Shown here: in pieces, positions 14,423 to 21,332 of the stretch
How positions within the stretch are numbered: position 1 is the stretch's first letter
How the letters are laid out: every line of letters starts with the position of its first letter
Assembly (NCBI GenBank): GCA_050633305.1
Contig: JBOEGF010000018.1
Span: 224,001-288,000, forward strand
Length of the DNA: 64,000 bases
DNA from: Nannocystales bacterium
Lineage (GTDB): Bacteria; Myxococcota_A; Polyangia; Nannocystales; Nannocystaceae
Direction: 5' to 3'
Notes under the pieces: generated by a model
The model's input: the letters and a program-made list of their open reading frames with translations, nothing else
Told to the model about the DNA's origin: nothing
The model's database searches: none
Program-made: the position numbers and the translations under genes

Positions 14423-15850
14423 TCAGCGCTTGGGGTTCTGAATGTGGATGGCCTCACCGATGGCGTGCTTGGCCGCTTCCATCACCGCCTCACCCAGCGT
14501 GGGGTGGGGGTGAATTGTCAGGCCGATGTCGGGGCCGTACGCGCCCATCTCGATCGCCAGTGCGGCTTCGGAGATGAGGTCGCTCGCCTCGGGTCCGACG
14601 ATGTGAACCCCGAGGACGCGCTCGTCGTCAGCATCGACGACCACTTTCACGAAGCCCACAGCCTCGTCGATCGCCATGGCTCGGCCGCTGGCGGCGAAGG
14701 GGAACTTGCCAATGTTGACCTTGTGGCCCTTGGCTTCCGCTTCCTTCTTGTTCATCCCCGCCGAGCTGATCTCGGGGTCGGTGAACACCACAGCCGGGAT
14801 CACTCGCGCATCGTTGACGGTCTTCTTGCCTGCGATGACCTCGGCGATGACCTCGCCCTCGTGGCTGGCCTTGTGCGCGAGCATGGGCTGACCGACGACG
14901 TCTCCAGCGGCGTAGATGCCAGGCACGTTGGTCTGCTGCCGGTTGTCGACGACGATGAAGCCCTTGTCGTCCAACTTCACGCCCGAACGCTCGATGGCCA
15001 AGCCGCGCGTGATCGGGAAGCGACCGACCGCGACCAAGACGACATCGGCGGAGACCTCTCGGGTCTCGCCGCCCACGTCCATCTTGACCACGGCCTTGCC
15101 ATTTCGCTCTTCCCAGCCGGTCGCGCGGGCGCCCGTGATGATCTCCCCGCCGTCCTTCTTGATCTGCTTGGCGACCGGCATACCCAGGTCCTTTTCCATG
15201 GCCGCGAGAATGCGGTCCATGCCTTCGACGACGGTCAGCTTCGTGCCCAGACGTTGGAAGGTTTGGCCAAGCTCCAGGCCGATGTAGCCACCGCCGATGA
15301 CGATCATCTCATCGGGGATTTCATCGAGCGCGAGGGCTCCCGTGCTGTCGACGATGCGCTTGCCGTCGTACTCGAACCCGGGGATCTGGATCGGAAGCGA
15401 GCCGGTCGCGAGGACGATGTGCTCCGCCTCGACGATATCGTCGGGCTTCTTCTTGCCGTCGACCTCGGGGTAGCTGAGCTTGACGCGCTTGGGCGCCAGG
15501 AACTCGGCGGTGGCTTGCACGTAGTCGCAGCCGTTGGCTTTGACCAGGCCGTGGACGCCGCTGGTGAGCTTGTGAATGACGCCGCCCTTCCAGGCTTGCA
15601 TCTTCTTCATGTCGACCTTCGGCGGGCCAAAGGTGATGCCCATGCTCTCGGCGTGCTGCGCTTTGTGGGCGAGCTTCGTCGCGCTGATCAGCGCCTTCGA
15701 TGGAATGCAGCCGACGTTGAGGCATACGCCGCCGGGCTGGGCCTTCTCGACGAGCATGGCGTCGACGCCGAGCTGGCCGAGGCGAATGGCGCAGGGATAG
15801 CCACCGGTGCCGGCACCGATGACGAGGGCTTTCTTCTTGATGATGGCCAT
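14423..15850 (-). CDS. lpdA: Dihydrolipoyl dehydrogenase (E3)
   Basis: GAGTGG, GGVCLNVGCIPSK redox disulfide, GGGYIGLE, GDV, HPHPTLGE. Confidence 0.97.
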   Translation of the reverse strand: MAIIKKKALVIGAGTGGYPCAIRLGQLGVDAMLVEKAQPGGVCLNVGCIPSKALISATKLAHKAQHAESMGITFGPPKVDMKKMQAWKGGVIHKLTSGVHGLVKANGCDYVQATAEFLAPKRVKLSYPEVDGKKKPDDIVEAEHIVLATGSLPIQIPGFEYDGKRIVDSTGALALDEIPDEMIVIGGGYIGLELGQTFQRLGTKLTVVEGMDRILAAMEKDLGMPVAKQIKKDGGEIITGARATGWEERNGKAVVKMDVGGETREVSADVVLVAVGRFPITRGLAIERSGVKLDDKGFIVVDNRQQTNVPGIYAAGDVVGQPMLAHKASHEGEVIAEVIAGKKTVNDARVIPAVVFTDPEISSAGMNKKEAEAKGHKVNIGKFPFAASGRAMAIDEAVGFVKVVVDADDERVLGVHIVGPEASDLISEAALAIEMGAYGPDIGLTIHPHPTLGEAVMEAAKHAIGEAIHIQNPKR

Positions 15851-15863
15851 GGCTGGAGGGCGA

Positions 15864-17138
15864 TCAGACGGAGAGGAACAGAAGGTTGGGGTTCTCGAGC
15901 TGGCGCTTGACCTCTTGCATGAAGCTGGCGCCCTCGAAGCCGTCGACGACGCGGTGGTCGAACGAGGCGGAGAGGTTCATGAGGTGGGCAGCGACGACGT
16001 TGTCGTTCTCGTCGAAGACTGGAGTCTTGCGGATCGCGTGCACGCCCAGGATCCCGACCTCGGGGTGGTTGAGGATCGGGGTCGCCAGCACGCCACCGAT
16101 GGCGCCGAGGCTGGAGACGGTGAAGGTCGAGCCGGTGAGCTCGTTGCGGGAGGCCGTGCCTTCCCGAGCTGCGTCGGAGACCCGGGTGATCTCGGCGGCG
16201 ACCTCGAGGATGCTCATCCGATCGGCGTCGTGGAGGACCGGGACCATCAAGCCCTGCTCGGTCGTCGCGGCGATGCCGATGTTGTACTGCTTGCGCTTGA
16301 CGATGTTGCCCCCGGCCTCGTCGAGGAACGCGTTGACGATCGGGTACTTCTTGAGCGCTGCGATGACCGCCTTGACGATGAACGGCAGGTAGGTGAGCTG
16401 CACGCCCTCGGCTTTGGCGACCGGCTTGGCATCCTTGCGGGCCTTGACCAGTTTCGTGACGTCGATCTGCTCGACGTAGGTGTAGTGGACCGCGGTCGTG
16501 TACGACTTGACCATGCCCTCTGCGATGCGGCGACGCATGCCGCGGAAAGGCACGAGTTCGTCAGCGTCGGAGACCACAGCGGGAGCAGTGGGCGCTGCTG
16601 GACGGGCGTTGGGCGGTGTCGGTGCCGCGGCGGCAGGGACGGCTGGAGCTGCGACCGGAGCCGGAGTCGCGCGAGCCTGAGCGACGTGGGCCTTGGTGAT
16701 GCGGCCGCGGTCGCCAGGGACCGTGGCGAGGTCGATCCCCGCTTCGCGGGCCATGGCTCGCGCGGCGGGAGTGGCCAGGACTTTCCCTCCGGTTGGGGCT
16801 GGAGCCGGAGCTGCGACTGGGGCCGAAACCGGAGCGGCCACGGGAGCCGGGGCCGCGGGTGCTGGCGCAGCTGCCGCGGCCGACGGCTTTGGAGCTGCGG
16901 CCCCGTCGGAGGCCAGCATCGCGATCACCTGACCGACGGCCGCGATCTCGCCTTCGGGCGCTTTGTGCTCTTGAACGACGGCATCTTGCGGCGAGGGAAT
17001 CTCGACGGTTGCCTTGTCGGTCATGATCTCGACAAGGGGCTCGTTGGCCATGACGTTGTCGCCGGGCTGTTTCAGCCAGCGCACGATTTCACCTTCGACG
17101 ACGCCTTCACCGATGGCGGGGAGCTTGAACTCGATCAT
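15864..17138 (-). CDS. Dihydrolipoamide acyltransferase (E2) with a single lipoyl domain
   Basis: Lipoyl Lys in MTDKATVEI, PSBD LATPAARAMARE, Pro/Ala linkers, catalytic FDHRVVDG. Confidence 0.96.
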   Translation of the reverse strand: MIEFKLPAIGEGVVEGEIVRWLKQPGDNVMANEPLVEIMTDKATVEIPSPQDAVVQEHKAPEGEIAAVGQVIAMLASDGAAAPKPSAAAAAPAPAAPAPVAAPVSAPVAAPAPAPTGGKVLATPAARAMAREAGIDLATVPGDRGRITKAHVAQARATPAPVAAPAVPAAAAPTPPNARPAAPTAPAVVSDADELVPFRGMRRRIAEGMVKSYTTAVHYTYVEQIDVTKLVKARKDAKPVAKAEGVQLTYLPFIVKAVIAALKKYPIVNAFLDEAGGNIVKRKQYNIGIAATTEQGLMVPVLHDADRMSILEVAAEITRVSDAAREGTASRNELTGSTFTVSSLGAIGGVLATPILNHPEVGILGVHAIRKTPVFDENDNVVAAHLMNLSASFDHRVVDGFEGASFMQEVKRQLENPNLLFLSV

Positions 17139-17194
17139 TGCAGGGTCCTTGGAGATTGGAGAAATTCGAGAGGGCGCGACAGAATCGCGGACGC

Positions 17195-18148
17195 TTAGAA
17201 CGTCGCGACGTGGGTGATGGCGGTGCTGAGGGTCTCGAGGTCGGGCAGGGCCCGGGCCTCGGCAGATGCGGTCAGAGGACCGTCATCGCCGGTGACGCGA
17301 AGCACGGGGGCGTCGAGGGTGAGGATGGCGTGGTCGGCAAACAGAGCCGCGAGTTCGGAGCCCACACCGCAGTGCCGCGGACCTTCGTGCGCGATGACGA
17401 TCTTGCCCGTGGCCTTCGCCTCGGCGGTGAGAGCATCGCGGTCCAGCGGTGCGAGGCACTCCACGTCGATGATGCGGGCATCTTGACCCGACCGGTCGAC
17501 GGCCGCTTGCACGAGGGGAAGGCATGCGCCCCAGGTGAAGACCGTCGCAGCTTCGCCGTCGCGGACTCGCCGCGGACTGGCGAACGGTCGGGCGAGTGCA
17601 TCGACGCACTCTCCGGCAGGAGCCAGCGCCAAGCTTCTGGGGATGAGCAACACAGTCGGCTCGTCCCCGGCCCAACCTTCGACAGCTGCACGAAGGGTTG
17701 CGCCGGACTCGGAAGCTTCGCCAAGAACCACCACGCGGAGGCCGGGCACTCGCGAGAGGATCGATGCGGGTCCTTCCGTGCCTCCACCACCGAGGCCGAA
17801 CCCAGGGCCGAACGGCGCGAGGAACACCACGGGCGCGGGAATCTCGTGACGCCAGCCGAGCTTGGCGGACTCTCGCAGTGCGGCGAGGCTGTCCACGAGC
17901 GACGACGCCTCCGGGCAGATGACGATCGGACGGAGCCCCTCGGCTGCCATCCCTGCCGCGTGGGCGGGGAGCACGGTGGGGCACAGCGGGGTTGCGAGCA
18001 GGCGGGGAGCCAGCTCGGGGTCGTCGGCCGCGACACGGGTGAGGCCGAGCATGGTGCCGTCGACCACGTCCTCGCCGAGGACGACACGACGCTCGTCGGC
18101 ACGAAGCAGGTCTGCGAGCACGGTGGCGAGATGTTGCAAGACGTTCAT
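17195..18148 (-). CDS. 2-oxoacid dehydrogenase E1 beta-like subunit with degenerate active site
   Basis: VVLGEDV, GMAAEGLRP, PGLRVV, TGKIVIAHE, G.ELAA, LDAPVLRVTG are retained. TPLCP replaces TPL(S/C)E; no HSQ motif. Confidence 0.88.
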   Translation of the reverse strand: MNVLQHLATVLADLLRADERRVVLGEDVVDGTMLGLTRVAADDPELAPRLLATPLCPTVLPAHAAGMAAEGLRPIVICPEASSLVDSLAALRESAKLGWRHEIPAPVVFLAPFGPGFGLGGGGTEGPASILSRVPGLRVVVLGEASESGATLRAAVEGWAGDEPTVLLIPRSLALAPAGECVDALARPFASPRRVRDGEAATVFTWGACLPLVQAAVDRSGQDARIIDVECLAPLDRDALTAEAKATGKIVIAHEGPRHCGVGSELAALFADHAILTLDAPVLRVTGDDGPLTASAEARALPDLETLSTAITHVATF

Positions 18149-19056
18149 GCGGGCTCCGTGACAGATTCGATGGCGCGGTCGAGGCTTCCGCGAACTTCCG
18201 CTTCGATCACGTCTTGAAGCGTTTGAGTCCAGGCGCCGGTTTGGTCCAAGTGCCGTCGGAGTCGCTCGACCGGGTCGCGATGCGCTGGGGGGTCGCGGTG
18301 CATTTGGGTGACCACGACCTCGACCAAGCTCGCGCCGCGTCCTTGGCGAGCGCGGTCGGCAGCCGCCTCGATGGCGGCGTGGGTTCCGAGCGCATCTGCG
18401 CCGTCCACCCGGCGGACCCAAAGACCTGCGGCCTTGGCACGGTCCGCCACTGCGTCGCCCACGGCTCCAGCCTCCGCGGGCGCGCCGTCGGGCCACAGTT
18501 GGCTGCGGCAAACCATCACCAACGGCAGCGCGAGCGAGGACGCGAGCATTGTCGACTCGTGAAACGCTCCGGTTGTGGTCAGGCCTTCGCCGAACAAGCC
18601 GAACGTGACCCCGCGCTTGTCGGCCAGCTTCTGTGCGTGGGCACGGCCTGTCGCGAGCGCGAGGTGCATACCCAGCGCGTCGGTTGGGGGCGCGATGCGA
18701 TGGCTTGCCGAAGCGATGCGTCCGGGCCCCAACTCGTCGGAGCTGAAGAGTCCGGCGACGATGGCTTCGAGCTCGAGGCCTCGCCCCAAGGCCACCGCGG
18801 CGTCGCGGAAGCCGGGATAGATCCAGTCCTGCTCCTCGCTGACCAACGCGGTGGAGATCAACGCGGCTTCTTCGCCCGCGGCAGATGCCCACATCGGCAG
18901 ACCAGCGCGGCTGAGTTTTAGGTCGAGGCAGCGGGCGGCGACCAACAGCTTATAGAGCTGCTTCGTGTCGACGCTTCCGGGGCGTGTGCCCACCAGCTGA
19001 CCGTTGGGGTCGAGAACGACCGTGACGCCTTCGGGATCCCAGGGTGTCGGCTCCAT
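18145..19056 (-). CDS. 2-oxoacid dehydrogenase E1 alpha-like subunit with degenerate active site
   Basis: GEEAA, DWIYPGFRD, FGEG....G.FHE, VDGAD, RAR.G.G.SLVE, DPVERLR are retained. The NN motif and the YR..HS..DD loop are absent. ATGA overlap with beta. Confidence 0.88.
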   Translation of the reverse strand: MEPTPWDPEGVTVVLDPNGQLVGTRPGSVDTKQLYKLLVAARCLDLKLSRAGLPMWASAAGEEAALISTALVSEEQDWIYPGFRDAAVALGRGLELEAIVAGLFSSDELGPGRIASASHRIAPPTDALGMHLALATGRAHAQKLADKRGVTFGLFGEGLTTTGAFHESTMLASSLALPLVMVCRSQLWPDGAPAEAGAVGDAVADRAKAAGLWVRRVDGADALGTHAAIEAAADRARQGRGASLVEVVVTQMHRDPPAHRDPVERLRRHLDQTGAWTQTLQDVIEAEVRGSLDRAIESVTEPA

Positions 19057-19119
19057 TGCAGGGGGGCGCCGCTCGGCAGTGGACCGCCAGAAAGGCAGGA
19101 CCAACCGTGACGCGAAAGC

Positions 19120-19149
19120 GTTGTATCTACGGCCGGCCTGGAGCGTCAA
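19120..19149 (-). promoter_or_regulatory. Putative sigma70 promoter of the E1a-E1b-E2-E3 operon
   Basis: Minus strand TTGACG-18 nt-TACAAC, about 65 nt upstream of ATG 19056. Confidence 0.55.
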
Positions 19150-19348: not shown

Positions 19349-20434
19349 TCACTGCGTGGGCTCTTGCTTGCGGACGCAGACCGCCATGTCGAGCGTCTCA
19401 CTCTTGATCGCCGTCCGGGCGGTTCCTGCCCTCCCGTGGACGACGAACGCGACGTCTTCCGCTTTGAGCGCTCGCGTTCGGGACCAGATCGCACCGTCTG
19501 GAAGGACCCGAGCTTTCGCGAGAACGTTGAGTTGCTTGGAACTGGGGGTTGTCCATCCTCGGACGCCGGCGTGTGTTCGTCCACGGCAAAGGTTCATCGC
19601 CGAGTACCAGTCGCGCGCGCGCTCGCTTGCAGCGTAGACCAGGTAGCCGCTGGCCGAGGTCACACGTTCGTGTCTGAGCGCCGCCGCGTCTTCCGAAGAC
19701 GGCGCGGATTGGGGAGGAGGCGGGGGCGGAGGCGGAGGCAACCGCGTGGGTTGGATGACCGGCGGGGCTTTGGGCGCGTCCGGGGCATCTGCGACGACGG
19801 CGGGCGCGGGGGCAGGTTCACTGAGCTCGGGCACGGGCGCAGGTGCCTCCTCGGATGGCCGGAACGCGAGCATGCCAAGTGCGGTGGTCATCGCTCCGAC
19901 AAGGGGCCAGATGAGCAACTGGGGTCGGAACGCCCGTGGTGAGCGCGCCGGGGCTGGCGTTGGGACCGGAGCCGGGGTCGTGGAGATGTCGACGACGTTT
20001 TCCTCGGCGCGTTCGAGCGGGTGGACGATTGGCGCCTCGATCGTCTCTTCGCACCGCAACGTTTTCATGCGGGCGCAAACCTGCCGGAACAGCGGCTGGG
20101 CACATCCCGCTCGTGTGCGGTCAACCCATGCGTGCTCGCGGTCGACCTCGCGGGCCAGCCGCGAGCGCAATACGGGGGTGTCGAGTTCGTCGGCGGCCGC
20201 GACCAGGAGCAGCGGCGGGCCCTCGCCCTGTAGTGCCTCTGCACAGGCCTGTGGCGAGGCCGGCACCAGACGAGTCTGATGGCCTTGCTCCCGGAGTAAG
20301 CGTGCCAAGCGGGTGGCGTCGAGTTGAGTAGGACGGCTGTAGATCAGCGCAACCTCGTGCTCCTGCGCGGGGTCGACCACCACCGAGGGGGCGGCGGGAA
20401 TGTTCGACGCGGCATGCACGGGCTTCTGCGACAT
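19349..20434 (-). CDS. Single-pass membrane protein: TIR-like N-domain, Pro-rich linkers, C-terminal DUF1566/Lcl-like domain
   Basis: N-terminal EVALIYSR..ATRLARLLREQG; TM LLIWPLVGAMTTALGMLAF; C-terminal DWYSAMNLC..G..GW..PS..QL..WS..AVCVR. Confidence 0.65.
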   Translation of the reverse strand: MSQKPVHAASNIPAAPSVVVDPAQEHEVALIYSRPTQLDATRLARLLREQGHQTRLVPASPQACAEALQGEGPPLLLVAAADELDTPVLRSRLAREVDREHAWVDRTRAGCAQPLFRQVCARMKTLRCEETIEAPIVHPLERAEENVVDISTTPAPVPTPAPARSPRAFRPQLLIWPLVGAMTTALGMLAFRPSEEAPAPVPELSEPAPAPAVVADAPDAPKAPPVIQPTRLPPPPPPPPPQSAPSSEDAAALRHERVTSASGYLVYAASERARDWYSAMNLCRGRTHAGVRGWTTPSSKQLNVLAKARVLPDGAIWSRTRALKAEDVAFVVHGRAGTARTAIKSETLDMAVCVRKQEPTQ

Positions 20435-20579
20435 CGTCCGAGTCCGGTGACGCTTGAGCGGGATGGGGGCGGACGTGCGGCCCAATAGGGGCTTGGCCCG
20501 AACGGGCTGACCCGTTGTGACCTGGGTGTCCCGCGGTCTGATGGTTGCCCCCGCGGTCAGCTGCTAGGCTGGTCCTGAG

Positions 20580-21332
20580 ATGCTGACCGTCGCATCACTG
20601 CTTGCCGCGATGACCATCGCAGGCGCATTCTGGGTGGGTGTTCTCGCGGCCCGACGCCTGCGCGACTGGGGAGAAGGGCGACGCGCGCTCGAGGAGGGAC
20701 ATGGACCACCCATGGCCCTTGCCGCCGCGGCCGGCGCTCCCCCGGACGACCCCTCCAGTCGTCGTGTTCGACAACTGGTTGCCGAACGCCTCGCCAACCC
20801 CCGCCGGAGGGCTGGCGCGGTCGCGCCCCGGCAGCTGGCCTCTTCTGATCCTGCCGCCCGGAGCGAGCTCGGTCTGAGCTCACTGCGACAAGGCGATGTT
20901 GTCGTTGTCGAGGCGGCGGACGGCGGGGCGGACGGCGACTACTTGACCGAAGGTGTGGTCCTGCTGCGAGAAGGCAACCACACCACCACCGTCGTCAACA
21001 TGGCGGATGGTTCTCGCCGACGGTGGCTCGTGGGGGGGTCTCATCTCGACGAGTGGTTCGTGCTCGAGCCGATCGCAGCCCATGGCCTCAGCGGTGAACC
21101 GCCACGCAACATCCGTCGCGACCGTGGCGACTACACGCTGCAACGTCGTGGGCAGGCGAGCGCGGCATGCACTGGACGGCACGAACGCCCCGAGCAACCC
21201 CGGGTGGCGAGCTACGTTTATGGGGGGTCGTCGCGCAACGTGCTGTGGCTGGAGCGCTGGGGGCACGAAGTGCTGATGGCCGAGGGCATCCGTCTCGAGG
21301 CCGAGTCCGTCTCGTTCCTCCCGGGAAGCTGA
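20580..21332 (+). CDS. DUF4178-like protein with N-terminal TM
   Basis: LRQGDVV, DG..RRWL, PP..I....Y.L..G.A, LERWG, C-terminal LPGS. Confidence 0.65.
   Translation: MLTVASLLAAMTIAGAFWVGVLAARRLRDWGEGRRALEEGHGPPMALAAAAGAPPDDPSSRRVRQLVAERLANPRRRAGAVAPRQLASSDPAARSELGLSSLRQGDVVVVEAADGGADGDYLTEGVVLLREGNHTTTVVNMADGSRRRWLVGGSHLDEWFVLEPIAAHGLSGEPPRNIRRDRGDYTLQRRGQASAACTGRHERPEQPRVASYVYGGSSRNVLWLERWGHEVLMAEGIRLEAESVSFLPGS

Follow-up and report, generated by a model that had tools for sequence, protein, structure and literature searches.

To our knowledge, E3BP is the only well-known pseudoenzyme component of the 2-oxoacid dehydrogenase complexes. The relevant parts of four papers (PMC10156792, PMC466950, PMC8146983, PMC6270654) describe it as a paralogue of E2 that is inactive and serves to recruit E3. 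For Myxococcus xanthus, the section of PMC3950526 that deals with esg (Bkd E1 alpha/beta) presents it as a branched-chain E1 providing the isovaleryl-CoA from which iso-fatty acids are made. Here we analyze an operon from a Nannocystales bacterium (Nannocystaceae; GCA_050633305.1, contig JBOEGF010000018.1, positions 224,001-288,000), and we refer to this whole stretch of 64,000 nucleotides as the window. In the operon, genes for an E1 alpha and an E1 beta homologue that appear catalytically dead stand before intact genes for E2 and E3. We consider it moderately probable that the dead pair, the pseudo-E1, is an adaptor that holds an active fused alpha-beta E1 by its C-terminal tail on the E2-bound complex. 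An earlier sequence-only reading had proposed a non-catalytic E1 acting on E2 as competitor, scaffold or metabolite sensor. Among these roles the scaffold is the one we favor, as an adaptor for one fused E1, a form that the earlier reading had not foreseen.

The features concerned are the following, with asterisks (alpha*, beta*) marking the catalytically dead pair of the operon below.

19144..19149, minus strand: -35 hexamer TTGACG of the operon promoter, identified by sequence and recurring at the order's loci
19120..19125, minus strand: -10 hexamer TACAAC, 18 nucleotides past the -35 hexamer, identified by sequence and recurring at the order's loci
18145..19056, minus strand: pseudo-E1 alpha, 303 amino acids, E1_dh fold, NN changed to SQ, His loop deleted, C-terminal arm missing
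17195..18148, minus strand: pseudo-E1 beta, 317 amino acids, without the cofactor-activating Glu, IQF and catalytic His, E2-docking residues kept
15864..17138, minus strand: E2, intact, with one lipoyl domain, a peripheral subunit-binding domain and a catalytic domain with DHRxxDG
14423..15850, minus strand: E3 dihydrolipoyl dehydrogenase, intact, TIGR01350 score 523.6 against a cut-off of 408.8
G000:C24:272827-275088, plus strand, outside the window: fused alpha-beta E1, the proposed partner, 753 amino acids, catalytic motifs complete

Fold and residue losses of the pseudo-E1

Both chains are recognizable as E1 subunits. Alpha passed the Pfam cut-off for E1_dh, and beta passed those for Transket_pyr and Transketolase_C. 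The predicted folds are those of E1 subunits, with predicted local distance difference test (pLDDT) values of 89.8 for alpha and 93.5 for beta. Foldseek gave template modeling (TM) scores of 0.84 for alpha to 1w88 and 0.90 for beta to 1qs0, with a range of 0.80-0.90 across solved E1s, which bears out the earlier claim that both chains keep the full fold. The scores against curated families were far under the cut-offs (161.5 vs 411.35 for TIGR03181 and 96.8 vs 321 for NF006667), and the identity to canonical E1s was only 24-33%.

We then counted the catalytic residues in the best 120 of 207 alpha matches and the best 121 of 2341 beta matches, and examined residues and stop codons in 60 genomes across the order. 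In the alignment to solved E1s, alpha S185-Q186 falls on the NN pair that closes the thiamine-diphosphate motif. The column of the Asn at its end, a Mg ligand, holds Gln in 117 of the 120 alphas and Asn in none. The alpha His loop is shorter by about 17 residues and the loop His appears in 0/120; the motif of the C-terminal arm is likewise found in 0/120 homologues, and the diphosphate Tyr is also lost. On the other side of the balance, GEG (G156-E157-G158) is present in all 120 alphas, R84 is invariant, and a new motif, [RK][ST]xxW[PA], occurs in 120/120. The swaps at the Mg/diphosphate ligands are conservative (Asp to Glu and Asn to Gln), with the wedge Leu (L128) retained; for a homologous E1, the relevant part of a preprint (bioRxiv 10.1101/2020.01.20.912931) states what the corresponding Asp, Asn, wedge Leu and Glu do. 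The sequence-only reading had described the end of the thiamine-diphosphate motif as replaced. The loss of NN stands, but with R84, GEG and Q186 kept, the Mg/diphosphate half-site of alpha is, as far as the alignments tell, remodeled and not merely lost.

For beta, the same alignment places P57 at the catalytic Glu, C78-P79-E80 at the IQF motif and G123 at the His. The cofactor-activating Glu was found in 0/121 homologues and 0/60 genomes, and neither the EIQF motif nor the catalytic His-Ser motif appeared in any of the 121. A lone His occupies beta column 123 in 4 of the 60 genomes. The alignment to solved E1s agrees with what had been noted from the letters alone: the catalytic Glu lost in TPLCP, EIQF and the beta His gone, and the alpha His loop cut. 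Indeed, every motif change quoted there for alpha, beta, E2 and E3 was found in place. Alpha H259 was considered as a substitute catalytic His and is present in 119/120 homologues, but it is Glu in 13/60 genomes and the candidate was dropped. Overall, five defining catalytic features fail, and by sequence the pair is homologous to E1 without being a working member of that family.

Conservation and selection

The alpha gene is present in 67 of the 72 genomes of our order survey, which spans 17 genera and includes 42 genomes of high quality. It was found in all 17 genera and in 42/42 high-quality genomes, and the five misses are genomes that are 72-88% complete. All homologues with names, among the best 120 alphas and 121 betas, bear Nannocystaceae names. 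With the family profile, whole genes of the order scored 370-530 bits, and the scores in the other genomes of a class sample of 300 did not exceed 190. A plasmid search returned nothing nearer than distant E1s at less than 60% identity.

The catalytic losses are common to 120/120 alpha and 121/121 beta homologues, and the earlier expectation that orthologues share them was correct. The ratio of nonsynonymous to synonymous substitution rates (dN/dS), from a simple counting method with four congeneric loci as comparison and dS of 0.4-1.0, was 0.07-0.17 for alpha and 0.08-0.24 for beta, next to 0.07-0.15 for E3 and 0.05-0.16 for the fused E1. These values are well under 1, as the sequence-only reading had anticipated. 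There was no internal stop in any of the 60 genomes examined. Because dN/dS is this low and the losses are common to the orthologues, simple decay is excluded, and the substitution pattern places the pair under purifying selection.

Matches in the ESM Atlas to 18148-19056 were E1_dh clusters only. The nearest are short proteins (284-306 amino acids) from Acidobacteriota, Chloroflexota and Actinomycetota, which may be further degenerate alphas.

A fused E1 as the proposed partner

The active E1 had been expected to be encoded elsewhere, and suitable genes are indeed there. The genome has four other E1_dh genes. One is in a canonical pyruvate-type alpha-beta-E2 cluster and one in a 2-oxoglutarate cluster; the other two are fused alpha-beta E1s, neither of which has an E2 neighbor. 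The fused E1 at C24:272827-275088 is present in 69 of the 72 order genomes and in 42/42 of high quality. Its catalytic motifs are complete, with Glu, E[IV]QF and His-Ser in 120/120 homologues and GDG in 116, and it is closer to branched-chain than to pyruvate E1 alphas. The flanks (1.5-2 kb) of 67 fused-E1 loci gave no match to E2 or E3. We also considered that the order might hide a canonical split branched-chain E1. With a canonical branched-chain-type beta as query against the 72 genomes none was found, and the best matches, at 41-45% identity, are of pyruvate type. Since no other E1 of matching type was found, we take the fused E1 to be the sole active E1 of the operon E2's type. Judging from these sequences, the substrate of the complex is probably a branched-chain 2-oxoacid.

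The second fused E1 (C18:758456-760681) was dropped as the partner because it is present in only 19/72 genomes. Its catalytic motifs are intact, and it has neither a docking motif nor a tail. Of 401 genomes sampled from the phylum, about 85 have tailed relatives of the first fused E1, in three tail variants. A split alpha/beta relative of the fused E1 (loci L272-L275) has no tail.

Putative docking face and C-terminal tail

The two E1s differ at their C-termini. Beta* carries L278-D279-A280-P281 and a terminal aromatic residue, the retained E2-docking residues. D279 and the last residue align on E285 and F324 of Geobacillus beta (1W85 chain B, an E1-E2 structure), which we take to be contacts to the E2 subunit-binding domain. 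L[DE][AS]P is found in 119 of the 121 betas, and the last residue is aromatic in 111. For the fused E1, on the other hand, the docking motif appears in 0/66 loci and 0/120 homologues. The sequence-only reading had called the beta C-terminal domain the best conserved part. Within the family this does not hold (conservation 0.67 vs 0.68), but the domain does retain more of the columns conserved in canonical E1s (0.61 vs 0.34). We infer from these residues that the pair docks on E2, and from the losses described above that it is non-catalytic.

The fused E1 ends instead in a variable Ala/Pro-rich linker followed by a motif of 11 residues, in which W, P and R are invariant. Exactly four residues follow the tail Arg in 68/68 genomes and 120/120 homologues, and the linker before the tail varies between 40 and 57 residues as counted from the last helix. 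An invariant distance from tail to stop together with a varying linker is what would be expected of a buried C-terminus. In a six-frame search of the genome, the fused E1 was the only open reading frame (ORF) to end in the tail motif. The fused enzymes of other families end in related tails, and in 34/38 of these the Arg is followed by three to five residues.

Predicted insertion of the tail into the old cofactor pocket

We modeled a complex of alpha*, two beta* chains and the last 34 residues of the fused E1. The complex score was 0.71 (0.68, 0.72 and 0.71 in separate runs), and the best of three controls reached 0.02. Of 157 solved complexes, 116 reach the mark used for this score, as do 2 of 215 mismatched pairs; these counts hold roughly here, with our own alignments and more than two chains. 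The runs have at least 45% of their contacts in common, and the confident contacts come only from the last 11 residues of the tail.

The contacts are at residues 54-58, 82-84, 128-129, 155-159, 186, 193-197 and 251 of alpha, and at 26-27, 30, 33-35, 55, 79 and 117 of beta'. Taken together, these residues are predicted to be the former thiamine-diphosphate pocket. In the model, R84, L128, GEG, Q186 and P193-x-E195-A-G line the pocket from the alpha side, and E26, D27, M33-L34-G35, L55 and F117 from the beta side. The final two residues of the tail are predicted to contact G156-E157-G158 and Q186, and the tail Arg to contact L128, L55 and E26. Conservation at the interface was 0.86 vs 0.69 elsewhere, and none of 10,000 random sets was as high. 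Furthermore, beta M33-L34-G35 and F117 and alpha E195-A196-G197 are non-canonical yet nearly fixed in the order. The predicted insertion would explain both the kept residues of the diphosphate site and the fixed tail length. The model, a prediction and not proof, supports binding of the tail in the pocket.

Degenerate E1s in other lineages

Outside the order we read 60 E2 loci, of which 20 were picked by E2 similarity and 40 by fused-E1 status, the state of their E1 genes not being known at the choice. The usual arrangement is alpha-beta-E2-alpha-E3 with canonical residues. Fused-E1 genomes contributed 35 loci, 30 of them with E1 genes, and a degenerate subunit was found in 29 of the 30. Genomes free of the fused E1 contributed 25 loci, 23 of them with E1 genes, and a degenerate subunit was found in 2 of the 23; in this group, G227 and G263 were not individually checked. 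Across the loci there is a series of degeneration, in which the first alpha alone is affected, then both alphas, and then beta in addition. In families with an intact beta, the degenerate alpha is the first alpha in all but one locus. In other families, all 21 degenerate betas have both the docking motif and the aromatic end, many of them with the intervening loop deleted, and 10 of the 21 still carry the Glu.

The E2 of the order nests among E2s of canonical, fused-E1-free operons (support 99, quick tree). The approximately unbiased (AU) test was run on an E2 tree of 45 rows. Rows lacking a beta had been removed from it, as had three that were long or of 2-oxoglutarate type and twelve that nearly duplicated others. 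A single clade for the E2s beside degenerate betas was rejected (AU p 0.0002). On these trees, the arrangement of fused E1 and degenerate E1 has at least two separate origins. We also tried alpha trees for the descent of the dead alpha from the first or the second alpha. Long branches join in them and they gave no answer; the grouping of dead alphas is not trusted.

Separate degenerate-E1 lineages stand beside the same kind of E2 (L100, L103, L106, L107, L171 and L196; L104 and L172-L195). In one degenerate group, the alpha is trimmed to about 190-260 residues and the beta lacks the loop that joins the docking motif to the last helix. The best 150 cluster representatives include 140 near-full-length proteins from outside the family. 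By a rough pattern count, 32 of these have neither NN nor a loop His, which suggests that degenerate alphas are more widespread than this system. In G292 and G282, a degenerate alpha stands beside a canonical beta, and a canonical alpha adjoins E3 at another site.

Operon organization and neighboring genes

The start of alpha is an ATG that corresponds to M1 in 115/120 homologues, and an ATGA overlap couples alpha and beta. E2 retains its lipoyl Lys, subunit-binding domain and DHRxxDG, and E3 passed TIGR01350, so that both are intact as had been stated. The gene order alpha-beta-E2 was found in 20/20 fetched order loci, with E3 also in 19; the remaining contig ends. The TTGACG-18-TACAAC pattern, like the ATGA coupling, had been noted before, and it recurs upstream of alpha in 19/21 order loci vs 0/21 control stretches. 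It occurs 7 times in the whole 11-Mb genome. A generic promoter/terminator scan gave this pattern no sigma-70 score and showed no signal above chance. The GC content at third codon positions (GC3) in this genome is 0.78 for alpha and beta vs 0.83 for E2 and 0.87 for E3.

A DUF4178 gene (window 20580-21332, plus strand) lies divergent from the operon, as it does in 13/20 order loci. A 378-amino-acid ORF (19349-20485, minus strand) lies between the DUF4178 gene and the operon; it has no Pfam match and is present in only 2/20 loci. Elsewhere in the genome (G000:C10, about 326880-327095, minus strand), an ORF has a lipoyl-like domain followed by several Cys-x-x-Cys pairs and belongs to no E2.

Proposed mechanism and alternatives

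On the sequence evidence, the pseudo-E1 has lost the residues that activate thiamine diphosphate and transfer the acyl group while staying under purifying selection. Its beta* C-terminal domains, given the conserved residues, would still attach to the E2 of the same transcript at its peripheral subunit-binding domain. The decarboxylase would be the unlinked fused alpha-beta E1, which has all catalytic motifs, has lost the docking face and ends in the 11-residue C-terminal motif after a linker. In the model, the tail enters the emptied cofactor pocket between pseudo-alpha and pseudo-beta'. The two residues at its end are placed at the former diphosphate/Mg site, and its Arg comes close to the former ring site. 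The fused E1 would thus be tethered to the complex where the lipoyl arm can reach it. As for the history, the fused enzyme may have docked first in one site of an ancestral two-alpha E1, where catalysis was then lost, and in some lineages the second site would also have died. The broader proposal is a four-component architecture, in which a dead E1 pocket is the receptor for a cofactor-mimicking tail and which arose repeatedly through visible intermediates; for this we see the chances as about even.

Several observations weigh against the adaptor. In the modeled complex, the pLDDT of the partner chain is 45-47, under 50. The complex score is a measure of the model's confidence, and three chain types with our own alignments are unlike the calibration. 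Moreover, the model used the same alignments as the interface conservation, and the two are not fully independent. Close cousins of a true partner can pass as well, and the tail may in reality bind a different E1-like pocket, for example the fused enzyme's own. Covariation between tail and pocket gives no clear support: a Ser for Asn in the tail accompanies alpha V57 in 9/13 vs 2/46, but 8 of those 9 come from one genus. The lower GC3 of alpha and beta might mean expression below what a stoichiometric adaptor needs. For the co-occurrence of fused and degenerate E1s, a test of the fused E1 against dead betas had just 2-4 independent pairs to draw on and did not reach significance. In addition, the fused-E1 status was known when 40 of the 60 loci were chosen. 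G292 (L203) and G282 (L209) have a degenerate alpha and no fused E1, and their split relative is tail-less. Their systems may be half-dead two-alpha tetramers, which the tail model leaves unexplained. Conversely, G291 has a fused E1, and the stretch seen there contains no degenerate subunit. Finally, the pocket residues are not kept in the degenerate alphas of other families, where the equivalent of E157 appears in 4/24.

The last point also bears on the alternative that survives best, which we nevertheless regard as unlikely: the pseudo-E1 as a non-catalytic regulator on E2 that competes with E3 and active E1 for the subunit-binding domains, while its pocket senses a diphosphate metabolite (thiamine diphosphate, a nucleotide or CoA) or sequesters the tail and so keeps the fused E1 from productive turnover. 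The retention of R84, GEG, Q186 and the L128 wedge in the order, and not in other degenerate alphas, would fit a Mg-diphosphate ligand. The docking face is kept, the lower GC3 fits a lower abundance, and bacterial subunit-binding domains are described as unselective between E1 and E3 in the pertinent part of PMC10156792. However, the modeled tail accounts for the same kept residues, and the ring-binding IQF motif is gone in 121/121. Such a regulator also leaves unexplained the co-occurrence and how a universal fused E1 without a docking face reaches E2.

It is harder to believe, and in our view quite improbable, that the tail binds elsewhere (its own dimer, the E2 core or E3), with the fused E1 reaching E2 alone and the pseudo-E1 serving as a spacer or assembly factor. 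The modeling of the tail was confined to alpha*/beta* as the target, tails also occur in families with an intact operon beta and an intact second alpha, and G292 and G282 show that degenerate alphas exist where the fused E1 does not. On the other hand, a spacer has no need of a frozen, lineage-specific pocket, and the variable linker suits a tether in trans. The bias toward the first alpha in intact-beta families, one locus excepted, also speaks against a spacer.

That the pair is still an enzyme seems very improbable. It could be a thiamine enzyme independent of the Glu, or it could form a hybrid in which the beta half of the fused E1 completes its half-site. Glyoxylate carboligases function with Val in place of the Glu, according to the passage on them in PMC3534367, and the ligand changes at the Mg/diphosphate site are conservative with the wedge Leu kept. 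Against this, Glu, IQF, both His, the diphosphate Tyr and the loop are all lost together. Nor is there a fixed replacement acid/base, given the variation at alpha H259 and beta column 123 described above.

Pseudogene-like decay after replacement by the fused E1 would fit the low identity to canonical E1s and the scores far below the NCBIfam cut-offs, but it can practically be dismissed in view of the dN/dS of 0.07-0.24, the presence in all 17 genera, the 60/60 genomes without stops, the new invariant motifs and the conserved promoter.

Comparison with known systems

With the heterotetrameric E1s (Geobacillus pyruvate dehydrogenase 1W85/1W88 and the BCKDH E1s of Thermus, 1UMB, Pseudomonas, 1QS0, and human, 1DTW), the pseudo-E1 shares the folds, the operon order and aligned residues of the beta C-terminal surface, by which it would bind E2. 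It differs from them in lacking the catalytic Glu, the His on either chain, NN, the His loop and the alpha arm, and in having new invariant pocket motifs. Databases annotate these genes as "E1 subunits", which would need correcting, with the real decarboxylase encoded elsewhere. The proposed partner corresponds to the fused "2-oxoisovalerate dehydrogenase E1" records of Plesiocystis and Enhygromyxa, names that are automatic only. In the papers we searched, the substrate, tail and docking mode of this type of fused E1 are undescribed. The M. xanthus esg E1 is an active split pair, unlike the fused E1. A literature search, thin on subscription journals, returned no dead E1, tail adaptor or this architecture in these organisms. 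Cultured hosts exist in Nannocystis, Plesiocystis, Enhygromyxa and Paraliomyxa.

If the adaptor is real, a conserved pseudo-E1 whose thiamine pocket has turned into a peptide site would be a new assembly principle. It would also be a natural case of a displaced enzyme becoming an obligatory adaptor, with intermediates surviving in related families. The closest parallel would then be E3BP. Like E3BP, the pseudo-E1 appears to be a dead paralogue of a complex subunit that is kept by selection and would recruit a peripheral enzyme. E3BP is derived from E2, recruits E3 via its subunit-binding domain and belongs to the eukaryotic pyruvate dehydrogenase. The pseudo-E1, in contrast, is derived from E1, is bacterial, and would recruit the active E1 through a dead active site. 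Both of its chains are E1 homologues and not E2 homologues, so by analogy the pseudo-E1 would be a functional analogue of E3BP and not a member of its family.

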